From contig JBGAVA010000001.1 of NCBI GenBank assembly GCA_044228355.1, positions 16,229 to 80,228 on the forward strand: a DNA stretch of 64,000 nt, written 5' to 3'. The translations under genes were made by a program, and so were the position numbers. This DNA is from Candidatus Saccharimonadales bacterium (lineage in GTDB: Bacteria; Patescibacteriota; Saccharimonadia; Saccharimonadales; UBA4665). Numbering within the stretch: the first letter of the stretch is position 1; each line of letters starts with the position of its first letter. Positions 7,281 to 62,083 of the stretch are shown one piece after another. Under the pieces are notes generated by a model, which did not search any database, was not told the DNA's origin, and was given only the letters and a program-made list of their open reading frames with translations.

Positions 7281-8048
7281 CTATGGATGCGACAAGTATT
7301 TCTTGAAGAACTCCACCGTTACGTTATTTATGGCCGGGAGGGCTTCGGGGTCGCGTTTGTAGCCGTGGGTTGTGTCGAACTCTAGATACTGCGTGGGCTG
7401 AGGTGCCAGCTCGGCCATGGCTCTAACACTTTCGGGCGTGACGTCTGTATCACGCGAGCCGGCGACGAACAGGGAGGGTATGTGCAGCTTTGGCGTTTCG
7501 TCGAGAGCGTTGTACTGCGCTCGGTCGGTCAGGAAGCTGTAGGGCAGTCGGATTTCCGGGAACCGGCCGTTGCCGAATGTCGCCCAGCCAGTCTCGCGCC
7601 ACACTTTTTCGGCACTTGGTTCCATCACTTTCCACCCAGAAGAGGGCTGGCAGCAACACACGGCTTTGATGGCCGGGTAACGTACAGCGGATGCCAATGC
7701 GACGAAACCGCCCATGCTGTGACCCCATATAGCGATGCGCTCTGGGTCAATCCCAGGTGAAATCTGTGCCCAACTGAGCACATCTGCTACCGCCGCAATG
7801 TAGTTTGTCATGGTGTAATCTTTTTCAAACGTGCCCTCGGACTCCCCAGAGCCCGGCGCATCGATCCGCAGCGCAGCGATGCCCGCTTTCACCAGCTCCT
7901 CGGCCAGTGCCTCTATATGCGCCTCTTCCTTCCACCCTGTAAACCCATGCAGCAGTATTACCAGGGGAAAAGACTCCGCACTGGGCGCACGAAGCAACCC
8001 AATAAGGTGCAAACCTGACTGTGTCTGTATGGTAACGCGCTGTTCCAT
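7281..8048 (-). CDS. alpha/beta hydrolase (serine hydrolase, dienelactone hydrolase / peptidase S9-like)
   Basis: LLHGFTG oxyanion region and nucleophile elbow GHSMGG, with a C-terminal His region. Confidence 0.7.
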   Translation of the reverse strand: MEQRVTIQTQSGLHLIGLLRAPSAESFPLVILLHGFTGWKEEAHIEALAEELVKAGIAALRIDAPGSGESEGTFEKDYTMTNYIAAVADVLSWAQISPGIDPERIAIWGHSMGGFVALASAVRYPAIKAVCCCQPSSGWKVMEPSAEKVWRETGWATFGNGRFPEIRLPYSFLTDRAQYNALDETPKLHIPSLFVAGSRDTDVTPESVRAMAELAPQPTQYLEFDTTHGYKRDPEALPAINNVTVEFFKKYLSHP

Positions 8049-8098
8049 GCTGTCAGTATAGACTACATTTCTCCAACCGGGGCTGTTATGATGAAGCC

Positions 8099-8854
8099 AT
8101 GAAGTACAAGCTACTCTTACTCGACATAGACGGAACGCTTACCAAATCGAAGCAGCATGCCCTACCAAGTGAAGTAGTATGCAATGCGGTTTCTAACGCT
8201 CAAACTAAGCTTCATGTCGCGGTTGCTACCGGGCGACCGTTTAGTTTTGCCGAACCTGTCGTGGCAGTACTACGGTTACGCGGTGTCAGCCTATTTAACG
8301 GGGGTGCCGAAATCGTTGACACGGTATCGAAGGAAGTACTGAAACGCACCCAGCTAGAAGTCGAAACACTTCAGGAGCTTGTCCGTCTCGCGCTCCCATT
8401 TGGATACGAGGTCTTCACTGACTCAGACCAGTATACGAAATCGCTGACCTCATCGGACCAGATTCGTGAACCGGCCGCAAAACTATTTATCCACGCCGTC
8501 CGGAACGCAGACGCGCTCCATCTGCTCGCGCAGCTCAACGGTGTGCCTGGCGCGGAAGCGCACCCAACAACGTCATGGGAAGACGGGGATGTCGTGGACA
8601 TACATATTACTCATGAGTTTGCCACAAAACGACATGGCGCCGAGGAGCTAATCGCTATGCTAGGGGTGAAGAAGGAAGAGGTCATAGCCGTTGGCGATGG
8701 CTATAATGATGTGCCGCTGCTGGAGGCGGCCGGGCTAAAGGTTGCTATGGGCAATGCCCCCGAGGAAGTTAAGCAACTGGCCGACTACGTTGCGCCATCA
8801 CTGGCCGATGACGGTGTTGCTGAAGTCATAAACCGGTTCGTACTGAGCACATAG
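8099..8854 (+). CDS. Cof-type HAD-IIB phosphatase
   Basis: Motif I LLLLDIDGTL, motif IV GDGYNDVPLL, and a cap domain between them. Confidence 0.75.
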   Translation: MKYKLLLLDIDGTLTKSKQHALPSEVVCNAVSNAQTKLHVAVATGRPFSFAEPVVAVLRLRGVSLFNGGAEIVDTVSKEVLKRTQLEVETLQELVRLALPFGYEVFTDSDQYTKSLTSSDQIREPAAKLFIHAVRNADALHLLAQLNGVPGAEAHPTTSWEDGDVVDIHITHEFATKRHGAEELIAMLGVKKEEVIAVGDGYNDVPLLEAAGLKVAMGNAPEEVKQLADYVAPSLADDGVAEVINRFVLST

Positions 8855-9775
8855 TTGCATTATGCGAGAGCTTCGGGACATAATAGGCTTGTGCAGCCTA
8901 CAAGCGACTCGCCCAACCAGCAAAAACCCACCACATCTCCTCAGGGGCCGGTTAGCATCGAACCGAGTGTAGCCCGCAAACTAGCTGCTTCGTTACGTGT
9001 ATCGCACGGTGTCAATGCCCTGGCTGTCTATATGGTAATTGGCGTCATCGGAGGCGCGGGTTTGTTTATACTGCGGGCATCGCAAACCGGTACGCACACC
9101 ACCATACAGAGTTCCACTGTCACAAAAGACGGTACTTCGCAACATGGCTCCACGGCCGTCCCGGGCGCTCCTGCCGATTCTTCGCCCGAGCAAACGACGC
9201 CAGCACCTACTTCGGTGCAATCTTCAAAACCGTCGCCCACTACGCAATCGCCCCCAACCACTCAGCCGTCACCCGCAGCCACCCCAACGCCTACGGCCAA
9301 TTGTCTTCCCGCAAACCCGTCACAGTACGATCTGTATTATATAAAGATGACAAATTCGCAGTATCTTAGCACAAACGGCTACGCTGACACAAACAAACTA
9401 TATGATGGTTTAAAATTTGCTGGCCTGCTCGGCACTATCGACACAAAACAGTACAGTGTCCTTGCCGTCTCGGATGGTACGTGGGGGAAGCTATCGCCCC
9501 AGCAAATAGCCTGGATGAACGCCAGCTCGCAGAACATGCGCTCTGTACTCGGCTGGCAAGTCATCACCAGCTGTATAACGTACAAAGGCGTGAATGCTAC
9601 GAAAGACTTGCCTATCGGCACAACAAAAGTGGTAAATACTCTAAATGGTTCCATCACGTTTACCGCGGACAGTATGGGTAAGTTTGAAACCGCCCCAGTA
9701 TATATATGGGATTGGTACACCAGCAATGGTGTTGTGACTTTCTCGGATTTTGTAAAGCCGCCGCAGGTTCAGTAG
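8855..9775 (+). CDS. membrane-anchored extracellular protein with Pro/Thr/Ser-rich linker and possible fasciclin (FAS1)-like C-terminal domain
   Basis: TM helix ALAVYMVIGVIGGAGLFIL, then a low-complexity PTTQSPPTTQPSPAATPTPT linker. The C-terminus ends with SNGVVTFSDFVKPP, which resembles the FAS1 NGVIHxID motif. The listed start is TTG, and the true start is uncertain. Confidence 0.45.
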   Translation: MHYARASGHNRLVQPTSDSPNQQKPTTSPQGPVSIEPSVARKLAASLRVSHGVNALAVYMVIGVIGGAGLFILRASQTGTHTTIQSSTVTKDGTSQHGSTAVPGAPADSSPEQTTPAPTSVQSSKPSPTTQSPPTTQPSPAATPTPTANCLPANPSQYDLYYIKMTNSQYLSTNGYADTNKLYDGLKFAGLLGTIDTKQYSVLAVSDGTWGKLSPQQIAWMNASSQNMRSVLGWQVITSCITYKGVNATKDLPIGTTKVVNTLNGSITFTADSMGKFETAPVYIWDWYTSNGVVTFSDFVKPPQVQ

Positions 9776-9791
9776 CTGGTATGGGTTGCCT

Positions 9792-60502: not shown

Positions 60503-60628
60503 CTGACCCACGCTCACTTTTTGATGTCATCTTGAGCGTAGTCGAAAGATCCCGTCCGTGTCGGCGCCTAACGAGATTCCTCCACTTCGGTCGGAATGAC
60601 AACGTGATAAAAACTGAGCGTGGGTCAG
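60503..60628 (-). mobile_element. MITE-like element copy 3 (126 bp, inverted relative to copy 2)
   Basis: Termini are CTGACCCACGCTCACTTTTT and AAAAACTGAGCGTGGGTCAG. GTGAGGG is present in both flanks (60496-60502 and 60630-60636). Confidence 0.8.
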
Positions 60629-60670
60629 GGTGAGGGCTTGCGGGATGATGGTTATGGTATAGTTGAGCGT

Positions 60671-61159
60671 ATGGAGCTCGCTATTCTTGCTGGTTTTGTT
60701 TTGCTACCGCCGCTCGCGACGCTGCTGCTGCGCTCAAACGGTGTACTCGTTTTCCTAAGCGTCTGCCTGGGAAGTGTTCTGGCGACCTATGTAGCGGGTG
60801 ATGCCAGTAGCGTCATATCTGGCGCCAGCCGCTCCAGCGTGCTTGCCACCATGCAATGGACGCAGCTTGGTCTGCTGGTTGTGCCTGTCATGCTCACAGT
60901 ACTTCTCAGCCGCAAGAAGCTGAAGGGTCTGAAGTTATTGCTCGGCGTTCTTGCCGCAGCCGCGGCCGGCGGTCTGCTTGCACTGCTGGCTGTACCGTAT
61001 ATGACCGCTACGTATCAGACCGCAATTAAATCCACCGAACTATGGCACGAACTCAGTAACCTCGAGACATCCCTTGTCATAGCTGGTGCTGCCATAACCA
61101 TCCTGCACCTCTTCATGACGCGTTGGAAGCCCGAGTCAGACAAGAAGAAGCACAAATAG
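60671..61159 (+). CDS. membrane protein (about 5 TM), unknown function
   Basis: The start is set at MELAILAG, downstream of the MITE. The C-terminal tail is KPESDKKKHK. Confidence 0.5.
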   Translation: MELAILAGFVLLPPLATLLLRSNGVLVFLSVCLGSVLATYVAGDASSVISGASRSSVLATMQWTQLGLLVVPVMLTVLLSRKKLKGLKLLLGVLAAAAAGGLLALLAVPYMTATYQTAIKSTELWHELSNLETSLVIAGAAITILHLFMTRWKPESDKKKHK

Positions 61160-61162
61160 CGG

Positions 61163-62083
61163 CTATTTGTTCACCTGGAAGGTTGTGTCGCCGGTGGCGA
61201 AAAAGTTGGCGATTTGCTGGGCTGCGGCACGGCCGGAGTTTTCATTGGCCTCGGCAGTTTCGGCACCCATTTTCTTGGGTGTAGCGTACACGCGGCCAGG
61301 GAAGGTGACAACGAGCTCGTCGTAGCTGTCGGGCATGACATCGGCCACATAAGACAGGTCAGGGCGCTCAGCCAGAACGCGCTTGAGGCCTGGCTCGTCT
61401 ATGACTTCCTTGCGTGCGGTATTGAGCAATGTTGCACCGGGTGGCATTCGCAGCATGAGTTCATAACCCACCGAAGCAATAGTGTCGGGCAGGGCAGGGA
61501 TGTGGAGCGATAGGTAGTGGCTGCTGCGATACAAATCTTCAAGACTCTCGACTGGTTCAACCTCAAATTCCCGCATAATTTCATTGCCCACATATGGATC
61601 GTAGGCATAAACTTTCATGCCAAGCCCGCGTGCGTGGGAGGCGACCAGCTTTCCCACATTACCAAATGCATGCAAACCAAGTGAACGTCCTCGAAGTTCT
61701 GTGCCCGTCCCAGGTGAAAACATGTTCCGAGCGCTGTATATCATGAGGCCGATGGCCAGTTCTGCTACGGCGTTGCTGTTCTGCCCCGGCGTGTTCATGA
61801 CGACGATCCCGGCCTTGGTGCAGGCAGCTAGATCGACATTGTCGTAGCCTGCGCCGGCGCGGACAACAATCTTCAGTTTCGGCGCAGCTTTTACGACCTC
61901 GGCTGTCACGGCGTCACTACGGACGATGAGCGCCTCAGCGGTTTTGACGGCTCGCAGCAGATCGGCTTGGTCTTCGTAGTTCTCGAGTACAGTCAGCTTG
62001 TGGCCGGCTTTTTCGATGGTGTTTCGGATGGCCGTGACGGCTTCCTTGGAGAACGGTTTTTGGGTGGCAAGCAGTACATTCAT
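61163..62083 (-). CDS. serA: D-3-phosphoglycerate dehydrogenase / D-isomer-specific 2-hydroxyacid dehydrogenase (short form)
   Basis: NAD-binding GLHAFGNVGKLVA and a catalytic-domain layout. It is translationally coupled to serC upstream (ATGA-type overlap). Confidence 0.75.
   Translation of the reverse strand: MNVLLATQKPFSKEAVTAIRNTIEKAGHKLTVLENYEDQADLLRAVKTAEALIVRSDAVTAEVVKAAPKLKIVVRAGAGYDNVDLAACTKAGIVVMNTPGQNSNAVAELAIGLMIYSARNMFSPGTGTELRGRSLGLHAFGNVGKLVASHARGLGMKVYAYDPYVGNEIMREFEVEPVESLEDLYRSSHYLSLHIPALPDTIASVGYELMLRMPPGATLLNTARKEVIDEPGLKRVLAERPDLSYVADVMPDSYDELVVTFPGRVYATPKKMGAETAEANENSGRAAAQQIANFFATGDTTFQVNK

Follow-up and report, generated by a model that had tools for sequence, protein, structure and literature searches.

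A two-box repeat scattered through a Candidatus Saccharibacteria genome is very probably a double-stranded-DNA recognition signal

The 64-kb stretch analysed here (the window) belongs to a Candidatus Saccharibacteria MAG, from the ultrasmall Saccharibacteria (TM7), and carries the 12-mer TTTCACCTGGGA many times as part of a longer element. What kind of sequence is this, how did it come to occupy its sites, and what would read it? A first-pass annotation left three readings: a REP/MITE-like mobile repeat, a 3′-UTR or termination signal, and an uptake-type or polar chromosomal motif.

Abundance, anatomy and placement

The window contains ten exact copies of TTTCACCTGGGA, nine of which had been listed before (the tenth is at 4273–4284, minus strand), and 12 copies with up to one mismatch, among them 9996 and 49230 (TTTCACCCGGGA), against an average of 0.29 and never more than 2 in 100 dinucleotide shuffles. 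The over-representation claimed for the window was confirmed genome-wide, since the top two 12-mers of the 1.21-Mb assembly are TTCACCTGGGAT (58 copies) and TTTCACCTGGGA (55 copies); their copies are scattered across more than 20 contigs, which disposes of a local duplication. The consensus is strong, with 55 perfect 12-mers vs. at most 12 copies of the commonest single-mismatch variant. A genome holds ~95–115 elements (~95 near-full by nhmmer, 115 by a sequence-only model), and the latter model finds 11 full two-box copies in the window (Table 1).

The element is ~45 nt long. Box 1, TTTCACCTGGGATG, contains TTTCACCTGGGA and is centred on CCNGG, the middle base being free. Next come ~8 nt with a T-run at their end, then the element's centre (ACAGAGG, CCTCTGT or CCAGATG) and, 4–6 nt further on, a second box, TTTCACYT. 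The distance between the boxes is 33 ± 1 nt: 44 copies have 33 nt, 15 have 34 and 6 have 32. The extended layout proposed earlier was broadly right but had to be corrected to this form. The central pentamer CAGAG/CTCTG is present in either orientation. The two TTTCAC boxes are direct repeats and, because 33 ± 1 bp corresponds to three helical turns, both lie on the same face of the helix. The reverse complement of the element contains AGGTGA, and some single boxes are ribosome-binding sites, 5–7 nt ahead of an ATG. A separate 31-bp palindrome family has nine copies in the genome, three of them 10–13 nt upstream of box 1, and its arm, CAGAGG, is the centre motif of the two-box element. The element itself has no inverted-repeat or hairpin potential: RNAalifold yielded no consensus pairs over 50 copies, so neither the stem with paired changes described previously nor its hint of RNA covariation is supported, the variation in question being due to the free middle base of the CCNGG centre.

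Table 1. Copies of the two-box element and related sequences in the window
Feature	Coordinates	Strand	Remarks
Full two-box copy	4241–4285	−	34.2 bits; antisense in 3-hydroxyisobutyrate-dehydrogenase (HIBADH)-like gene 3808–4650 (+); encodes ..DEVKPHLENIASQVK..; site kept, free of indels, in most of the genus's 16 orthologues
Box 1 alone (TTTCACCTGGGA), no second box	7748–7764	−	13.1 bits, the match spanning model positions 2–18 only; inside gene 7281–8048 (−)
Full copy, CCCGGG variant	9994–10037	+	27.8 bits; same sense in ORF 9786–10334 (+)
Full intergenic copy, CTATCTGT-type centre	18944–18986	−	38.2 bits; flanked by TauE-like gene 19290–20075 (−) and tRNA 18708–18781 (−)
Full intergenic copy	24866–24912	−	32.5 bits; antisense to both flanks, gene 22852–24858 (+) and FtsH-like gene 24968–26854 (+); orthologous G003 site degenerate (two changes in box 1, second box mostly gone)
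Full copy, in frame, antisense	32194–32237	−	Variable linker of lepA (31576–33462); encodes ..RGETDRGELTIPGE..
Full copy, same sense	33583–33628	−	33.2 bits; abuts stop of AhpC/TSA (bcp) gene 33628–34299 (−), assigned by Pfam PF00578 (E = 2e-41)
Degenerate palindrome-family copy plus decayed box (GTTTCAATTGG)	42376–42416	+	Unmatched by the sequence-only two-box model
Palindrome-family copy (TCCAGAGGACTGTCCTCTGAAAG)	45690–45714		10 nt upstream of next element
Full intergenic copy, same sense	45719–45766	+	31.8 bits; ~110 nt downstream of fic (44442–45605, +)
Full intergenic copy	47528–47573	+	28.6 bits; 35 nt past stop of gene 46404–47492 (+); convergent with AAA ATPase gene 47599–49155 (−)
Full intergenic copy, CCCGGG variant	49229–49275	+	25.1 bits; between two minus-strand genes; second box itself box-1-like (TTTACCTGGGAT)
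Full intergenic copy, best-scoring of the genome	50667–50713	+	45.1 bits; ~25 nt past stop of gene 49855–50643 (+), 72 nt ahead of gene 50785–53706 (+)
Weaker full copy, same sense	61674–61721	−	17.4 bits; inside gene 61163–62083 (−); kept in G003 and G004

Around 66 of the ~95 genome copies are wholly within called genes, and ~70% overall are coding, in both orientations and several frames. A position right after stop codons, as the first-pass annotation had it, therefore applies to ~five copies in the window but not genome-wide, where ~10 copies lie 2–52 nt past a same-sense stop. From the six cases placed 3′ of a gene, four indeed lie in the same sense near a stop or gene end (33583–33628, 45719, 47528 and 50667), including the one abutting the bcp stop codon; the case given at 18941 is a real copy, although the closest gene on its strand is ~300 nt away, and that at 42383 is a degenerate member of the palindrome family and not a two-box element.

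The ratio of antisense to sense copies within genes (47:19) equals that predicted from codon usage alone (66:34), and spacing is random (CV of 0.97 vs. 0.98 ± 0.12 for random placement). There is no terminus exclusion or origin clustering, and the gap at the terminus of the complete relative G003 does not exceed chance expectation; likewise, G003 has 29 leading-strand vs. 31 lagging-strand copies, and a polar chromosomal motif was accordingly rejected. Strain-specific genes are four-fold depleted in the element (4 observed vs. 12.9 expected, p = 0.002).

We found the element in 20 of the 28 species of one genus, with up to ~117 copies; the 80 genomes checked from 78 further genera of the order have none. 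When the genomes of 185,579 species were scanned for exact two-box matches, 38 places emerged, ~27 of them in Saccharibacteria/Saccharimonadales-type MAGs; the others are scattered singletons, which we attribute to chance. The element is thus specific to part of one Saccharibacteria genus, in which eight species are motif-free and losses occurred repeatedly. The species have the same consensus, and this absence of species-specific dialects was counted against an uptake reading.

Conservation and origin of the copies

Spanning orthologous alignments in G003 were available for 53 of the 91 copies from G000, and ~45 of these retain the element; orthologous positions are occupied in species whose flanks are only 68–79% identical. 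We show here that the copies are held against synonymous drift whichever strand is transcribed: between species, identity at third codon positions is 71.4% in elements vs. 48.1% in flanks (odds ratio 2.7, p = 3e-31), both for antisense copies (70% inside vs. 49% in flanks) and for same-sense copies (74% vs. 45%), and at codon positions 1 and 2 conservation is no better inside elements than outside. Conservation falls immediately beyond the element edges, indicating that no attached promoter is conserved.

We also show here that the copies originated by point substitutions within sequence that was already there, in housekeeping genes and spacers alike. In a gap test against the motif-free congener G013, 22 of 37 alignable sites had no gap and 14 had small gaps, and only at the lepA copy did protein lengths differ by 10 aa or more (14 aa, in a variable linker). 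In the HIBADH-like gene the motif arose stepwise and in place, and three of the four most distant orthologues (51–68% identity) have equal protein length and lack the motif. The element also lies over native conserved protein sequence in the S4 domain of RluD, in the C-terminus of XseA and in the HIBADH-like protein. The orthologous positions, the lack of an element-sized gap at 36 of 37 sites and the lack of hairpin potential lead us to reject a REP/MITE-like mobile repeat. Given no mobility, constraint at the level of DNA and no RNA or polarity signal, the element is very probably a double-stranded-DNA recognition signal that was built in place.

Candidate readers of the signal

Our best guess from the combined analyses, which we hold tentatively, is that the element may be a tag akin to the uptake signal sequences (USS/DUS) of Pasteurellaceae and Neisseriaceae, read by the uptake and transformation machinery. 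A sequence-specific and probably oligomeric DNA-binding factor would read the signal as part of the natural-transformation machinery (type IV pilus and Com), such that fragments with the element would be preferentially taken up or recombined; under this bias, new or improved copies would spread in the population and old ones would persist, with no benefit needed at each individual site. The element behaves like the DNA-uptake "self" tags of Haemophilus and Neisseria, a kind of signal not known from the Saccharibacteria phylum. USS/DUS lack orientation bias, have many of their copies in genes, are not insertions, are stable over long periods and have a strong consensus, also with flanking helically phased motifs (PMC1626085), and the set of properties that defines them is that of the element. 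Additionally, comEC and dprA are present, and Saccharibacteria are naturally transformable in a comEC-dependent manner (PMC10633639). From the earlier uptake-type or polar reading, the uptake half hence fits the evidence best, short of proof.

Several observations count against uptake. The density of the element, ~1 per 12 kb, is ten-fold below that of known USS/DUS (~1 per kb); it is 45 bp long with two boxes, whereas known uptake signals have a 9–12-bp core; and its spacing is random, whereas that of USS/DUS is reported as more regular than random. The distribution of competence genes does not match that of the motif: nearly all eight motif-free congeners have intact comEC and dprA (G001 is without comEC), and the complete genome G004, in which comEC is broken, nevertheless retains the element at the 9 orthologous sites that were examined, roughly as well as G003. 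Our search found no uptake receptor for the element; a large pilin-like protein considered as candidate does not track the motif. Sequence-specific uptake has so far been found only in two proteobacterial families (PMC1626085).

Nearly as likely, although similarly doubtful, is that the copies serve an intracellular DNA-binding protein of the clade as docking sites, this protein being either nucleoid-associated or chromosome-organising, in the manner of Noc, SlmA or MatP, or a regulator with a genome-seeded operator, the sites being maintained by ordinary selection for a genome-wide function. The protein would bind the two direct boxes cooperatively on one helix face, leaving the CAGAG/CTCTG centre to be read by a partner or a second domain. 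This agrees with the direct repeats at fixed spacing, with the half-site that the centre shares with the palindrome family, and with a constraint on duplex DNA that is independent of orientation and without polarity; likewise, the repeated losses within the genus fit the loss of a dispensable factor. Site sets for Noc or SlmA are on the scale of ~100 per genome, which the element matches. However, no candidate protein was found: the genes common to G003 but missing from G013 are mostly biosynthetic, and an HTH-PRT gene with a copy on either side is strain-specific. Canonical parS is not present. Docking is also at odds with the random spacing and the lack of any regional pattern, including at the G003 terminus; the motif is not palindromic, and a reduced-genome symbiont would have to maintain ~100 small-effect sites, at some cost in protein sequence. 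Moreover, the consensus is stronger than usual for regulatory sites (an argument from PMC1626085).

A mutational drive linked to repair or methylation, modelled on the proposal for the cyanobacterial HIP1 palindrome, is improbable. A methyltransferase and very-short-patch-type mismatch repair acting at the CCNGG core would convert near-matches to matches, with no protein docking needed for a cellular purpose. The core does contain CCWGG or CCNGG, with the middle base free, and the motif, like HIP1, originates in place and is preserved at synonymous sites (model in PMC4390886). Nevertheless, the genus has no credible Vsr, with none in G000 or G003 and its only two hits at or below the family cut-off; a C5 methyltransferase was not found in G000, G003, G004 or G043, all motif-rich. 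A 5-bp short-patch process, in turn, cannot explain a 45-bp element with its second box at a fixed 33 bp.

We give still less weight to a signal at the RNA level, be it in a 3′-UTR, in termination, in processing or stability, as antisense RNA or as Shine-Dalgarno-like (AGGTGA) pause sites. The copies just past same-sense stops, the AGGTGA in the reverse complement and the single boxes acting as ribosome-binding sites speak for it, as do the copies adjoining terminator hairpins, e.g., at the 3′ ends of rpoC and tuf; these few, though, are merely beside hairpins that are separate. The lack of consensus pairs and of a conserved attached promoter argues against it, and Rfam had no match for the element; the 3′-UTR or termination role is unsupported in general by the coding location of most copies and the equal excess of conservation in both orientations to transcription.

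Least likely of all are relics of a miniature mobile element inserted in frame in the ancestor of the clade and immobile since, like the Rickettsia palindromic elements: the 14-aa difference in lepA, several copies in unalignable protein tails and an ~80-nt unit (double box plus terminator hairpin) that flanks, as a direct repeat, a low-GC orphan gene downstream of rpoC would suit them, but the gap test and the element overlying native conserved protein sequence largely refute them, there are no terminal inverted repeats, target duplications or transposase, and renewed synonymous-site constraint is not expected of ancient relics.

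Anatomy, placement and range of the element

The 12-mer TTTCACCTGGGA occurs ten times without mismatch in the window, as the nine copies of the first-pass annotation plus one on the minus strand that it had missed, and its 12 copies with up to one mismatch compare with 0.29 expected from dinucleotide-preserving shuffles. The excess extends to the whole source genome (G000; 1.21 Mb in 49 contigs, 52% GC, with the window at positions 16229–80228 of contig C11), where TTCACCTGGGAT (58 copies) and TTTCACCTGGGA (55 copies) are the two most frequent 12-mers, whereas each of five control words of scrambled order had 0 copies. 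Besides the 55 perfect copies, 76 carry one mismatch and 161 carry two, with no single mismatch variant of the word above 12 copies. Since more than 20 contigs carry copies, confinement to the window by a local duplication, which had been named as one of the observations that would undo the claim, is excluded.

Alignment of all copies confirmed that the word is part of an extended layout, although this is a longer, multi-part unit whose components differ from those first described. Box 1 (TTTCACCTGGGATG) is near-invariant except for the middle base of its CCNGG centre, and is followed by around 8 nt, with a run of T at their end, and by a central pentamer that is either CAGAG (often ACAGAGG) or its reverse complement CTCTG (CCTCTGT), with CAGATG as a variant. 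Box 2 is TTTCACYT, often as TTTCACCTCATT or TTTCACTTGGTT, and in some copies its place is taken by another full box 1; the distance from box to box is 33 nt in 44 copies, 34 nt in 15 and 32 nt in 6. The seed alignment of this element holds ~47 bits. A profile search found ~95 near-full copies in G000, and a sequence-only covariance model (R1) found at least 115, with 11 full copies in the window, for a density of one element per 10–13 kb (about 95–115 copies in 1.21 Mb).

According to in-house rough gene calls, based on ORFs and codon scores and missing, for example, bcp, 66 copies in G000 lie wholly within genes (~70% of copies are in coding sequence) and ~30 are intergenic or extend across gene ends. 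Host genes include lepA, polA, nusB, xseA, a rluD-type gene, nadD, pyrD and a glycosyltransferase gene. The location right after stop codons that was initially reported holds for four copies of the window, including the one abutting the bcp stop codon, but corresponds to a minority of copies genome-wide; the site at 42383, also taken for an element 3′ of a gene, is instead a member of a different palindrome family. Among the intragenic copies of G000, 47 are antisense and 19 same-sense, and the antisense copies occupy two frames only, read as ..EVK..SQVK.. (33 copies) and ..IPGE.. (14 copies), the remaining antisense frame having a TGA. The observed 47:19 departs from 50:50 (p = 0.0008) and agrees with the 66:34 antisense:same-sense ratio predicted by a codon-usage model for box 1 (p = 0.44), indicating that the orientation bias is an effect of coding cost, as for USS. 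Element density per 10 kb is 0.82 in the G000 genes common to G003 (a complete relative) and G013 (a motif-free congener), 0.78 in those common to G003 only, and falls to 0.21 in strain-specific ORFs, which hold 4 copies where 12.9 are expected (p = 0.002).

A scan with the exact two-box pattern of one genome per prokaryote species retrieved 38 loci, ~27 of which belong to Candidatus Saccharibacteria or to Saccharimonadales-type MAGs, including the complete genome CP064992.1 (G003); we read the others, scattered single matches, as due to chance. Within the genus, R1 counts, which are minima because they derive from up to 150 scored candidates per genome, were at least 117 in G012, 115 in G000, 104 in G043, 86 in G015, 84 in G005, 83 in G023 and 82 in G003; at the low end were G021 (12), G019 (7), G010 (5) and G016 (1), and eight species had none. 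No element was found with R1 in 80 genomes from 78 other genera of the order. In a nucleotide tree of lepA, six motif-free or nearly free species (G016, with one copy, among them) form the basal branches, and members with few or no copies (G024 and G001, 0; G010, 5; G021, 12) are nested in the motif-bearing clade. Judged from this single-gene tree, the motif seems to have been gained once within the genus and to have decayed several times since.

Origin of the copies and constraint on them

Genome comparisons extended, in full or in part, to three relatives. The copies of relatives map to the positions of the G000 copies, despite flanks of only 68–79% identity. In a test free of ascertainment bias, starting from all G000 copies and using the whole G003 genome as target, 53 of 91 copies had a spanning orthologous alignment and the element was recognizable in ~45 of these 53. 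Per-position identity between both genomes was 0.83–0.9 in the boxes, ~0.73 in the flanks and 0.62–0.66 just outside the element. We also compared the coding copies with motif-free G013, following the procedure of Redfield et al. for USS (PMC1626085): among 37 alignable copies, 22 were gapless and 14 showed small gaps of either sign, and a deficit of at least 10 residues in G013 was seen only for lepA (1/37), whose copy sits in a linker that varies in length in every species. Likewise, the 16 orthologues of the HIBADH-like gene of the window are of equal length; most of them contain ..NEVKPHLEKIASQVKYFG.. plus the DNA motif, whereas three of the four most distant ones show ..EDLRSTLSAIAGDVKCFG.. 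or similar, without the motif. Native conserved protein sequence also underlies the element in the S4 domain of RluD and in the C-terminus of XseA. Together, the orthologous positions, the gapless alignments and the HIBADH-like, RluD and XseA cases indicate that the element was written in place by substitutions.

Sequence conservation was not distributed evenly over codon positions. For 48 coding copies of G000 compared with G003, third-position identity was 71.4% inside the element and 48.1% in the flanking coding sequence (Fisher odds ratio 2.7, p = 3e-31), whereas the first and second positions showed no gain within the element (81% and 84% inside vs. 84% and 89% outside). The excess appeared in antisense copies (70% vs. 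49%, p = 1e-18) as well as in same-sense copies (74% vs. 45%, p = 1e-14), which speaks against a role of any kind in the sense mRNA. At the level of sequence comparison, these results show the element to be a clade-specific, strand-symmetric signal of duplex DNA that arose in place and is maintained at synonymous sites.

Neighbouring repeats

Other repeats occur near the element in G000. A separate, perfect 31-bp palindrome, CCACTTTCAGAGGACWGTCCTCTGAAAGTGG, which can be written as CCACTTTCAGAGGAC(A/T)GTCCTCTGAAAGTGG, has nine copies whose arms are the centre word of the element; three of the nine are 10–13 nt upstream of a box 1, and some are intragenic. A related palindrome adjoins the element, in frame, in the lepA gene of G009 and G043. 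The lepA residues ~195–230 form a linker after the LepA G domain with 0 to ~45 extra residues depending on the species; it seems to accumulate repeats in general.

Downstream of rpoC, a unit of ~80 nt, comprising a reverse-complement double box and a terminator hairpin, is present twice as a direct repeat, flanking a low-GC orphan gene of 177 aa; the same locus of G003 has a single unit and lacks the orphan gene. This arrangement looks like a cassette insertion or a duplication at an element. A composite repeat located at five contig ends contains, in this order, GGCTCCGGTGGATG, the hairpin GCGGCCTACGGCCGC, tandem heptamers (CCAACGT, CCACCGT or CTACCGT) and a variant two-box element (TTCACCCGGGACGGCAAAATAACAGAGAACCATTTCACCCCATT), and it probably breaks the assembly. 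Additionally, tandem arrays of 7-nt period (TAAGAGT/TAAGAGA, GGTAGCA/GGTAGTA, ATGAGTC) are numerous in the intergenic regions of the genome; they rank among its most frequent 12-mers and in some cases adjoin elements.

Coordinates of the features discussed in the text. C followed by a number designates a contig (of G000 unless stated); window positions are those within C11:16229–80228
Feature	Location	Strand	Remark
Exact 12-mer copy	window 4273–4284	minus	additional copy
Element copy	window 33583–33628		abuts the bcp stop codon
Element copy	window 45719		after a stop codon
Element copy	window 47528		after a stop codon
Element copy	window 50667		after a stop codon
HIBADH-like gene	window 3808–4650	plus	
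lepA	window 31576–33462		
31-bp palindrome	window 45690–45714		
31-bp palindrome	C11:103997		
31-bp palindrome	C11:104675		
31-bp palindrome	C22:110968		
31-bp palindrome	C23:5403		
31-bp palindrome	C25:3458		
31-bp palindrome	C36:1069		
31-bp palindrome	C44:63372		
31-bp palindrome	C45:4374		
Repeated ~80-nt units	C10:8860–9890		3′ of rpoC
Orphan gene	C10:9102–9635		between the two units
Composite repeat	C7:100–210		contig end
Composite repeat	C32:250–357		contig end
Composite repeat	C37:2449–2560		contig end
Composite repeat	C39:100–218		contig end
Composite repeat	C45:36770–36878		contig end
7-nt array	beside the element at C7:16668		adjoins an element
7-nt array	beside the element at C44:67824		adjoins an element
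7-nt array	beside the element at C44:27361		adjoins an element
Locus of 327-aa protein	C47:33841–35082		strain-specific
comEC	C11:83206–84711		
comEC pseudogene	G004:C1:253772–254297		

Candidate roles and known systems

From the direct boxes three helical turns apart, the T-tract and a centre word identical to the arms of the separate 31-bp palindrome, we infer that a putative oligomeric protein reads the element. The reading that we rank first, tentatively, is a "self" tag for transformation that would work like the USS of Pasteurellaceae. This ranking is based on the properties shared with USS and with the DUS of Neisseriaceae, on the comEC-dependent natural transformation of Saccharibacteria (PMC10633639), on the presence of comEC and dprA, and on a drive that would explain ~100 sites. 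USS and DUS are defined by the absence of orientation bias, many genic copies in tolerated frames, an origin other than insertion, long-term stability at orthologous sites, a strong consensus, and a core with phased flanking motifs (PMC1626085). Like USS, with a core AAGTGCGGT and two AT-rich flanking tracts, the element is a single word enriched many-fold on both strands without chromosomal orientation bias; many of its copies are genic, in the reading frames cheapest to encode; it originated by point mutation, with the same outcome in the same gap test; its single copies are stable at orthologous sites and have a strong consensus; and it combines a tight core with weaker, helix-phased motifs in a naturally competent clade whose genomes encode an uptake apparatus (PMC1626085). 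Biased uptake plus recombination would drive the element into ~100 sites, some of them within the coding regions of essential genes; such a drive would install and keep these sites in a small-genome symbiont without a benefit per site, and at some cost in protein sequence.

Several observations weigh against the uptake tag. The element is ten-fold sparser than known uptake sequences (1 per 12 kb) and randomly spaced where USS are regular; at 45 bp it is also longer, having a second box in direct orientation and a centre that can be flipped. A further difference from USS is the host, which belongs to the Candidate Phyla Radiation and has a different cell envelope. It resembles DUS (GCCGTCTGAA, read by the minor pilin ComP) in being a clade-specific genomic "self" word, with some copies associated with terminators and with type IV pilus genes in the genome. 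However, DUS is a single 10–12-mer found about once per kb, often as inverted pairs that themselves form the terminator, whereas the element lacks self-complementarity, and hairpins, where present, are separate units adjoining it. DUS also has dialects between genera; we found no species-specific dialects of the element, with G023, G043 and G005 showing the same preference for T over C in the centre. In its working, the element would be most like USS and DUS, but we do not file it as a member of either, because it departs from them in two defining features, density (1 per 10–13 kb, which is low) and spacing (no more regular than random), and because preferential uptake, the decisive feature, would be a prediction.

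The uptake genes do not discriminate either. A ComEC domain is present in 26 of 28 genomes of the genus, its apparent absence from G005 being an assembly gap, and DprA in 26 of 28; since nearly all motif-free species also have both (G001 lacks comEC), there is no usable correlation of these near-universal genes with the motif. Conversely, in the complete relative G004 the element persists at the 9 orthologous sites inspected, in spite of a comEC pseudogene that is broken into three frame-shifted pieces with stop codons (residues 116–290 of 501). Its dprA open frame is also shorter (225 aa). A search for a receptor found no candidate tracking the motif. A pilin-like protein of 516 aa encoded beside pilus genes, present in G003 and absent from G013, was discarded because its occurrence does not follow the motif: motif-free G024, G006 and G008 have it, whereas motif-rich G005, G011, G015 and G042 do not. 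In the literature searched, nothing linked Saccharibacteria to uptake sequences; the word occurred in 19 papers, and among the matches listed (ten) all were unrelated and none was on Saccharibacteria.

Almost as likely as the uptake tag, and itself doubtful, is a set of intracellular docking sites for a nucleoid- or chromosome-organizing factor, or a seeded operator. Sets of docking sites such as Noc NBS, SlmA SBS, MatP matS and ParB parS also comprise tens to ~100 specific chromosomal sites, many of them intragenic and originated by point mutation. In addition, TTTCAC is similar to one half of a parS site, and direct repeats that are two or three helical turns apart are reminiscent of the iterons of plasmids. 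Nevertheless, those sites are regional palindromes of 14–16 bp, whereas the element has direct repeats and no regional pattern. In G003, the spacing of copies (CV 0.97) is indistinguishable from random placement (0.98 ± 0.12), there is no regional clustering, and the gap at the terminus, which does not exceed the largest one that chance would produce, is not reproduced by the rough positions in G023. Canonical parS (TGTTTCACGTGAAACA, up to 2 mismatches) is absent from the whole genomes of G000 and G003, and a ParB/parS link was thus rejected. The suggestion of a polar chromosomal motif is equally untenable: the 60 copies of G003 divide into 34 plus-strand and 26 minus-strand ones, or into 29 leading and 31 lagging ones with respect to the GC-skew extremes (minimum at 420 kb, maximum at 1,040 kb), without the strand skew switching at origin or terminus that is typical of Chi, KOPS or AIMS-type signals.

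As for a protein reading such sites, a gene for an HTH plus phosphoribosyltransferase protein flanked by two copies is strain-specific, and the 180 genes common to G000 and G003 but not to G013 are mostly for nucleotide and amino-acid biosynthesis; both facts weigh against these genes. The first product, of 327 aa, weakly matches a winged helix at its N-terminus and carries a phosphoribosyltransferase-like domain at its C-terminus, a layout that is PurR- or ComF-like, and its gene has one element 154 nt upstream and another 13 nt past the stop. Genes for the de novo synthesis of purines and pyrimidines, along with others for biosynthesis, have been retained in the motif-bearing lineage but are missing from the 0.82-Mb genome of G013; they include purL, purH, purD, purB, purC, purE, guaA and carB.

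A drive by methylation and repair in the style of HIP1, which would predict a modified base within CACCNGGGATG, is improbable. Like HIP1 and the alternate iterated palindromes of cyanobacteria, the element is written by substitution in genes and spacers, is kept beyond the needs of the protein code and is patchy among relatives (PMC4390886). However, HIP1 is an 8-bp palindrome at very high density with cognate methyltransferases, whereas the 45-bp element is sparse and non-palindromic, its palindromy being limited to CCNGG. Vsr is absent from the genus and a C5 methyltransferase from motif-rich G000, G003, G004 and G043, so that VSP or Dcm-type repair drives were rejected.

Roles at the RNA level are very unlikely. 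The paired changes in a short stem that had hinted at RNA structure correspond to the free middle base of CCNGG, and RNAalifold predicted 0 pairs in 50 copies; a 3′-UTR or termination signal is at odds with this lack of structure, with the equal constraint on both orientations and with the absence of any Rfam match, the only Rfam families in the window being three tRNAs. Least probable of all is a relic of a mobile element, whether REP/MITE-like, as once proposed, or an in-frame MITE or RPE: some copies do lie just past stop codons, as with REP/BIME, ERIC and Correia repeats, or are translated in frame in housekeeping proteins such as LepA and PolA, as with the RPE of Rickettsia, but the former are extragenic, palindromic and mobile or RAYT-dependent and the latter are insertions of 100–150 bp with hairpin potential, whereas the element is mostly intragenic and positionally conserved over native protein segments, lacks terminal inverted repeats or a hairpin (its boxes are direct repeats), and left no element-sized gap in 36 of 37 alignments; on the strength of this gap test and of the orthologous positions, an in-frame mobile element was rejected.

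To our knowledge, genome-wide words that are point-mutated into genes and conserved at synonymous sites are rare, USS, DUS and HIP1 being the only known cases, and each of these has raised long-running questions of molecular drive versus selection. The element adds a new instance, in the Candidate Phyla Radiation and with an unusual two-box architecture, and its clean pattern of one gain and several losses in a single genus makes the responsible factor amenable to phylogenetic profiling. Annotators should be aware that a DNA signal gives rise, as a by-product, to recurrent peptides of these proteomes such as ..EVKxxxxxxxxSQVK.. It is conceivable, if rather uncertain, that this is the first sequence-specific uptake or "self-recognition" signal outside Proteobacteria, a composite 45-bp tag of two boxes whose reader would be the machinery of type IV pilus and Com in a bacterium of the Candidate Phyla Radiation. 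Should it prove to be an uptake tag, including the 45-bp element on donor DNA might make transformation more efficient in Saccharibacteria, whose manipulation is otherwise difficult; should it prove to be a docking site, a new chromosome-level system of ultrasmall symbionts would come to light.
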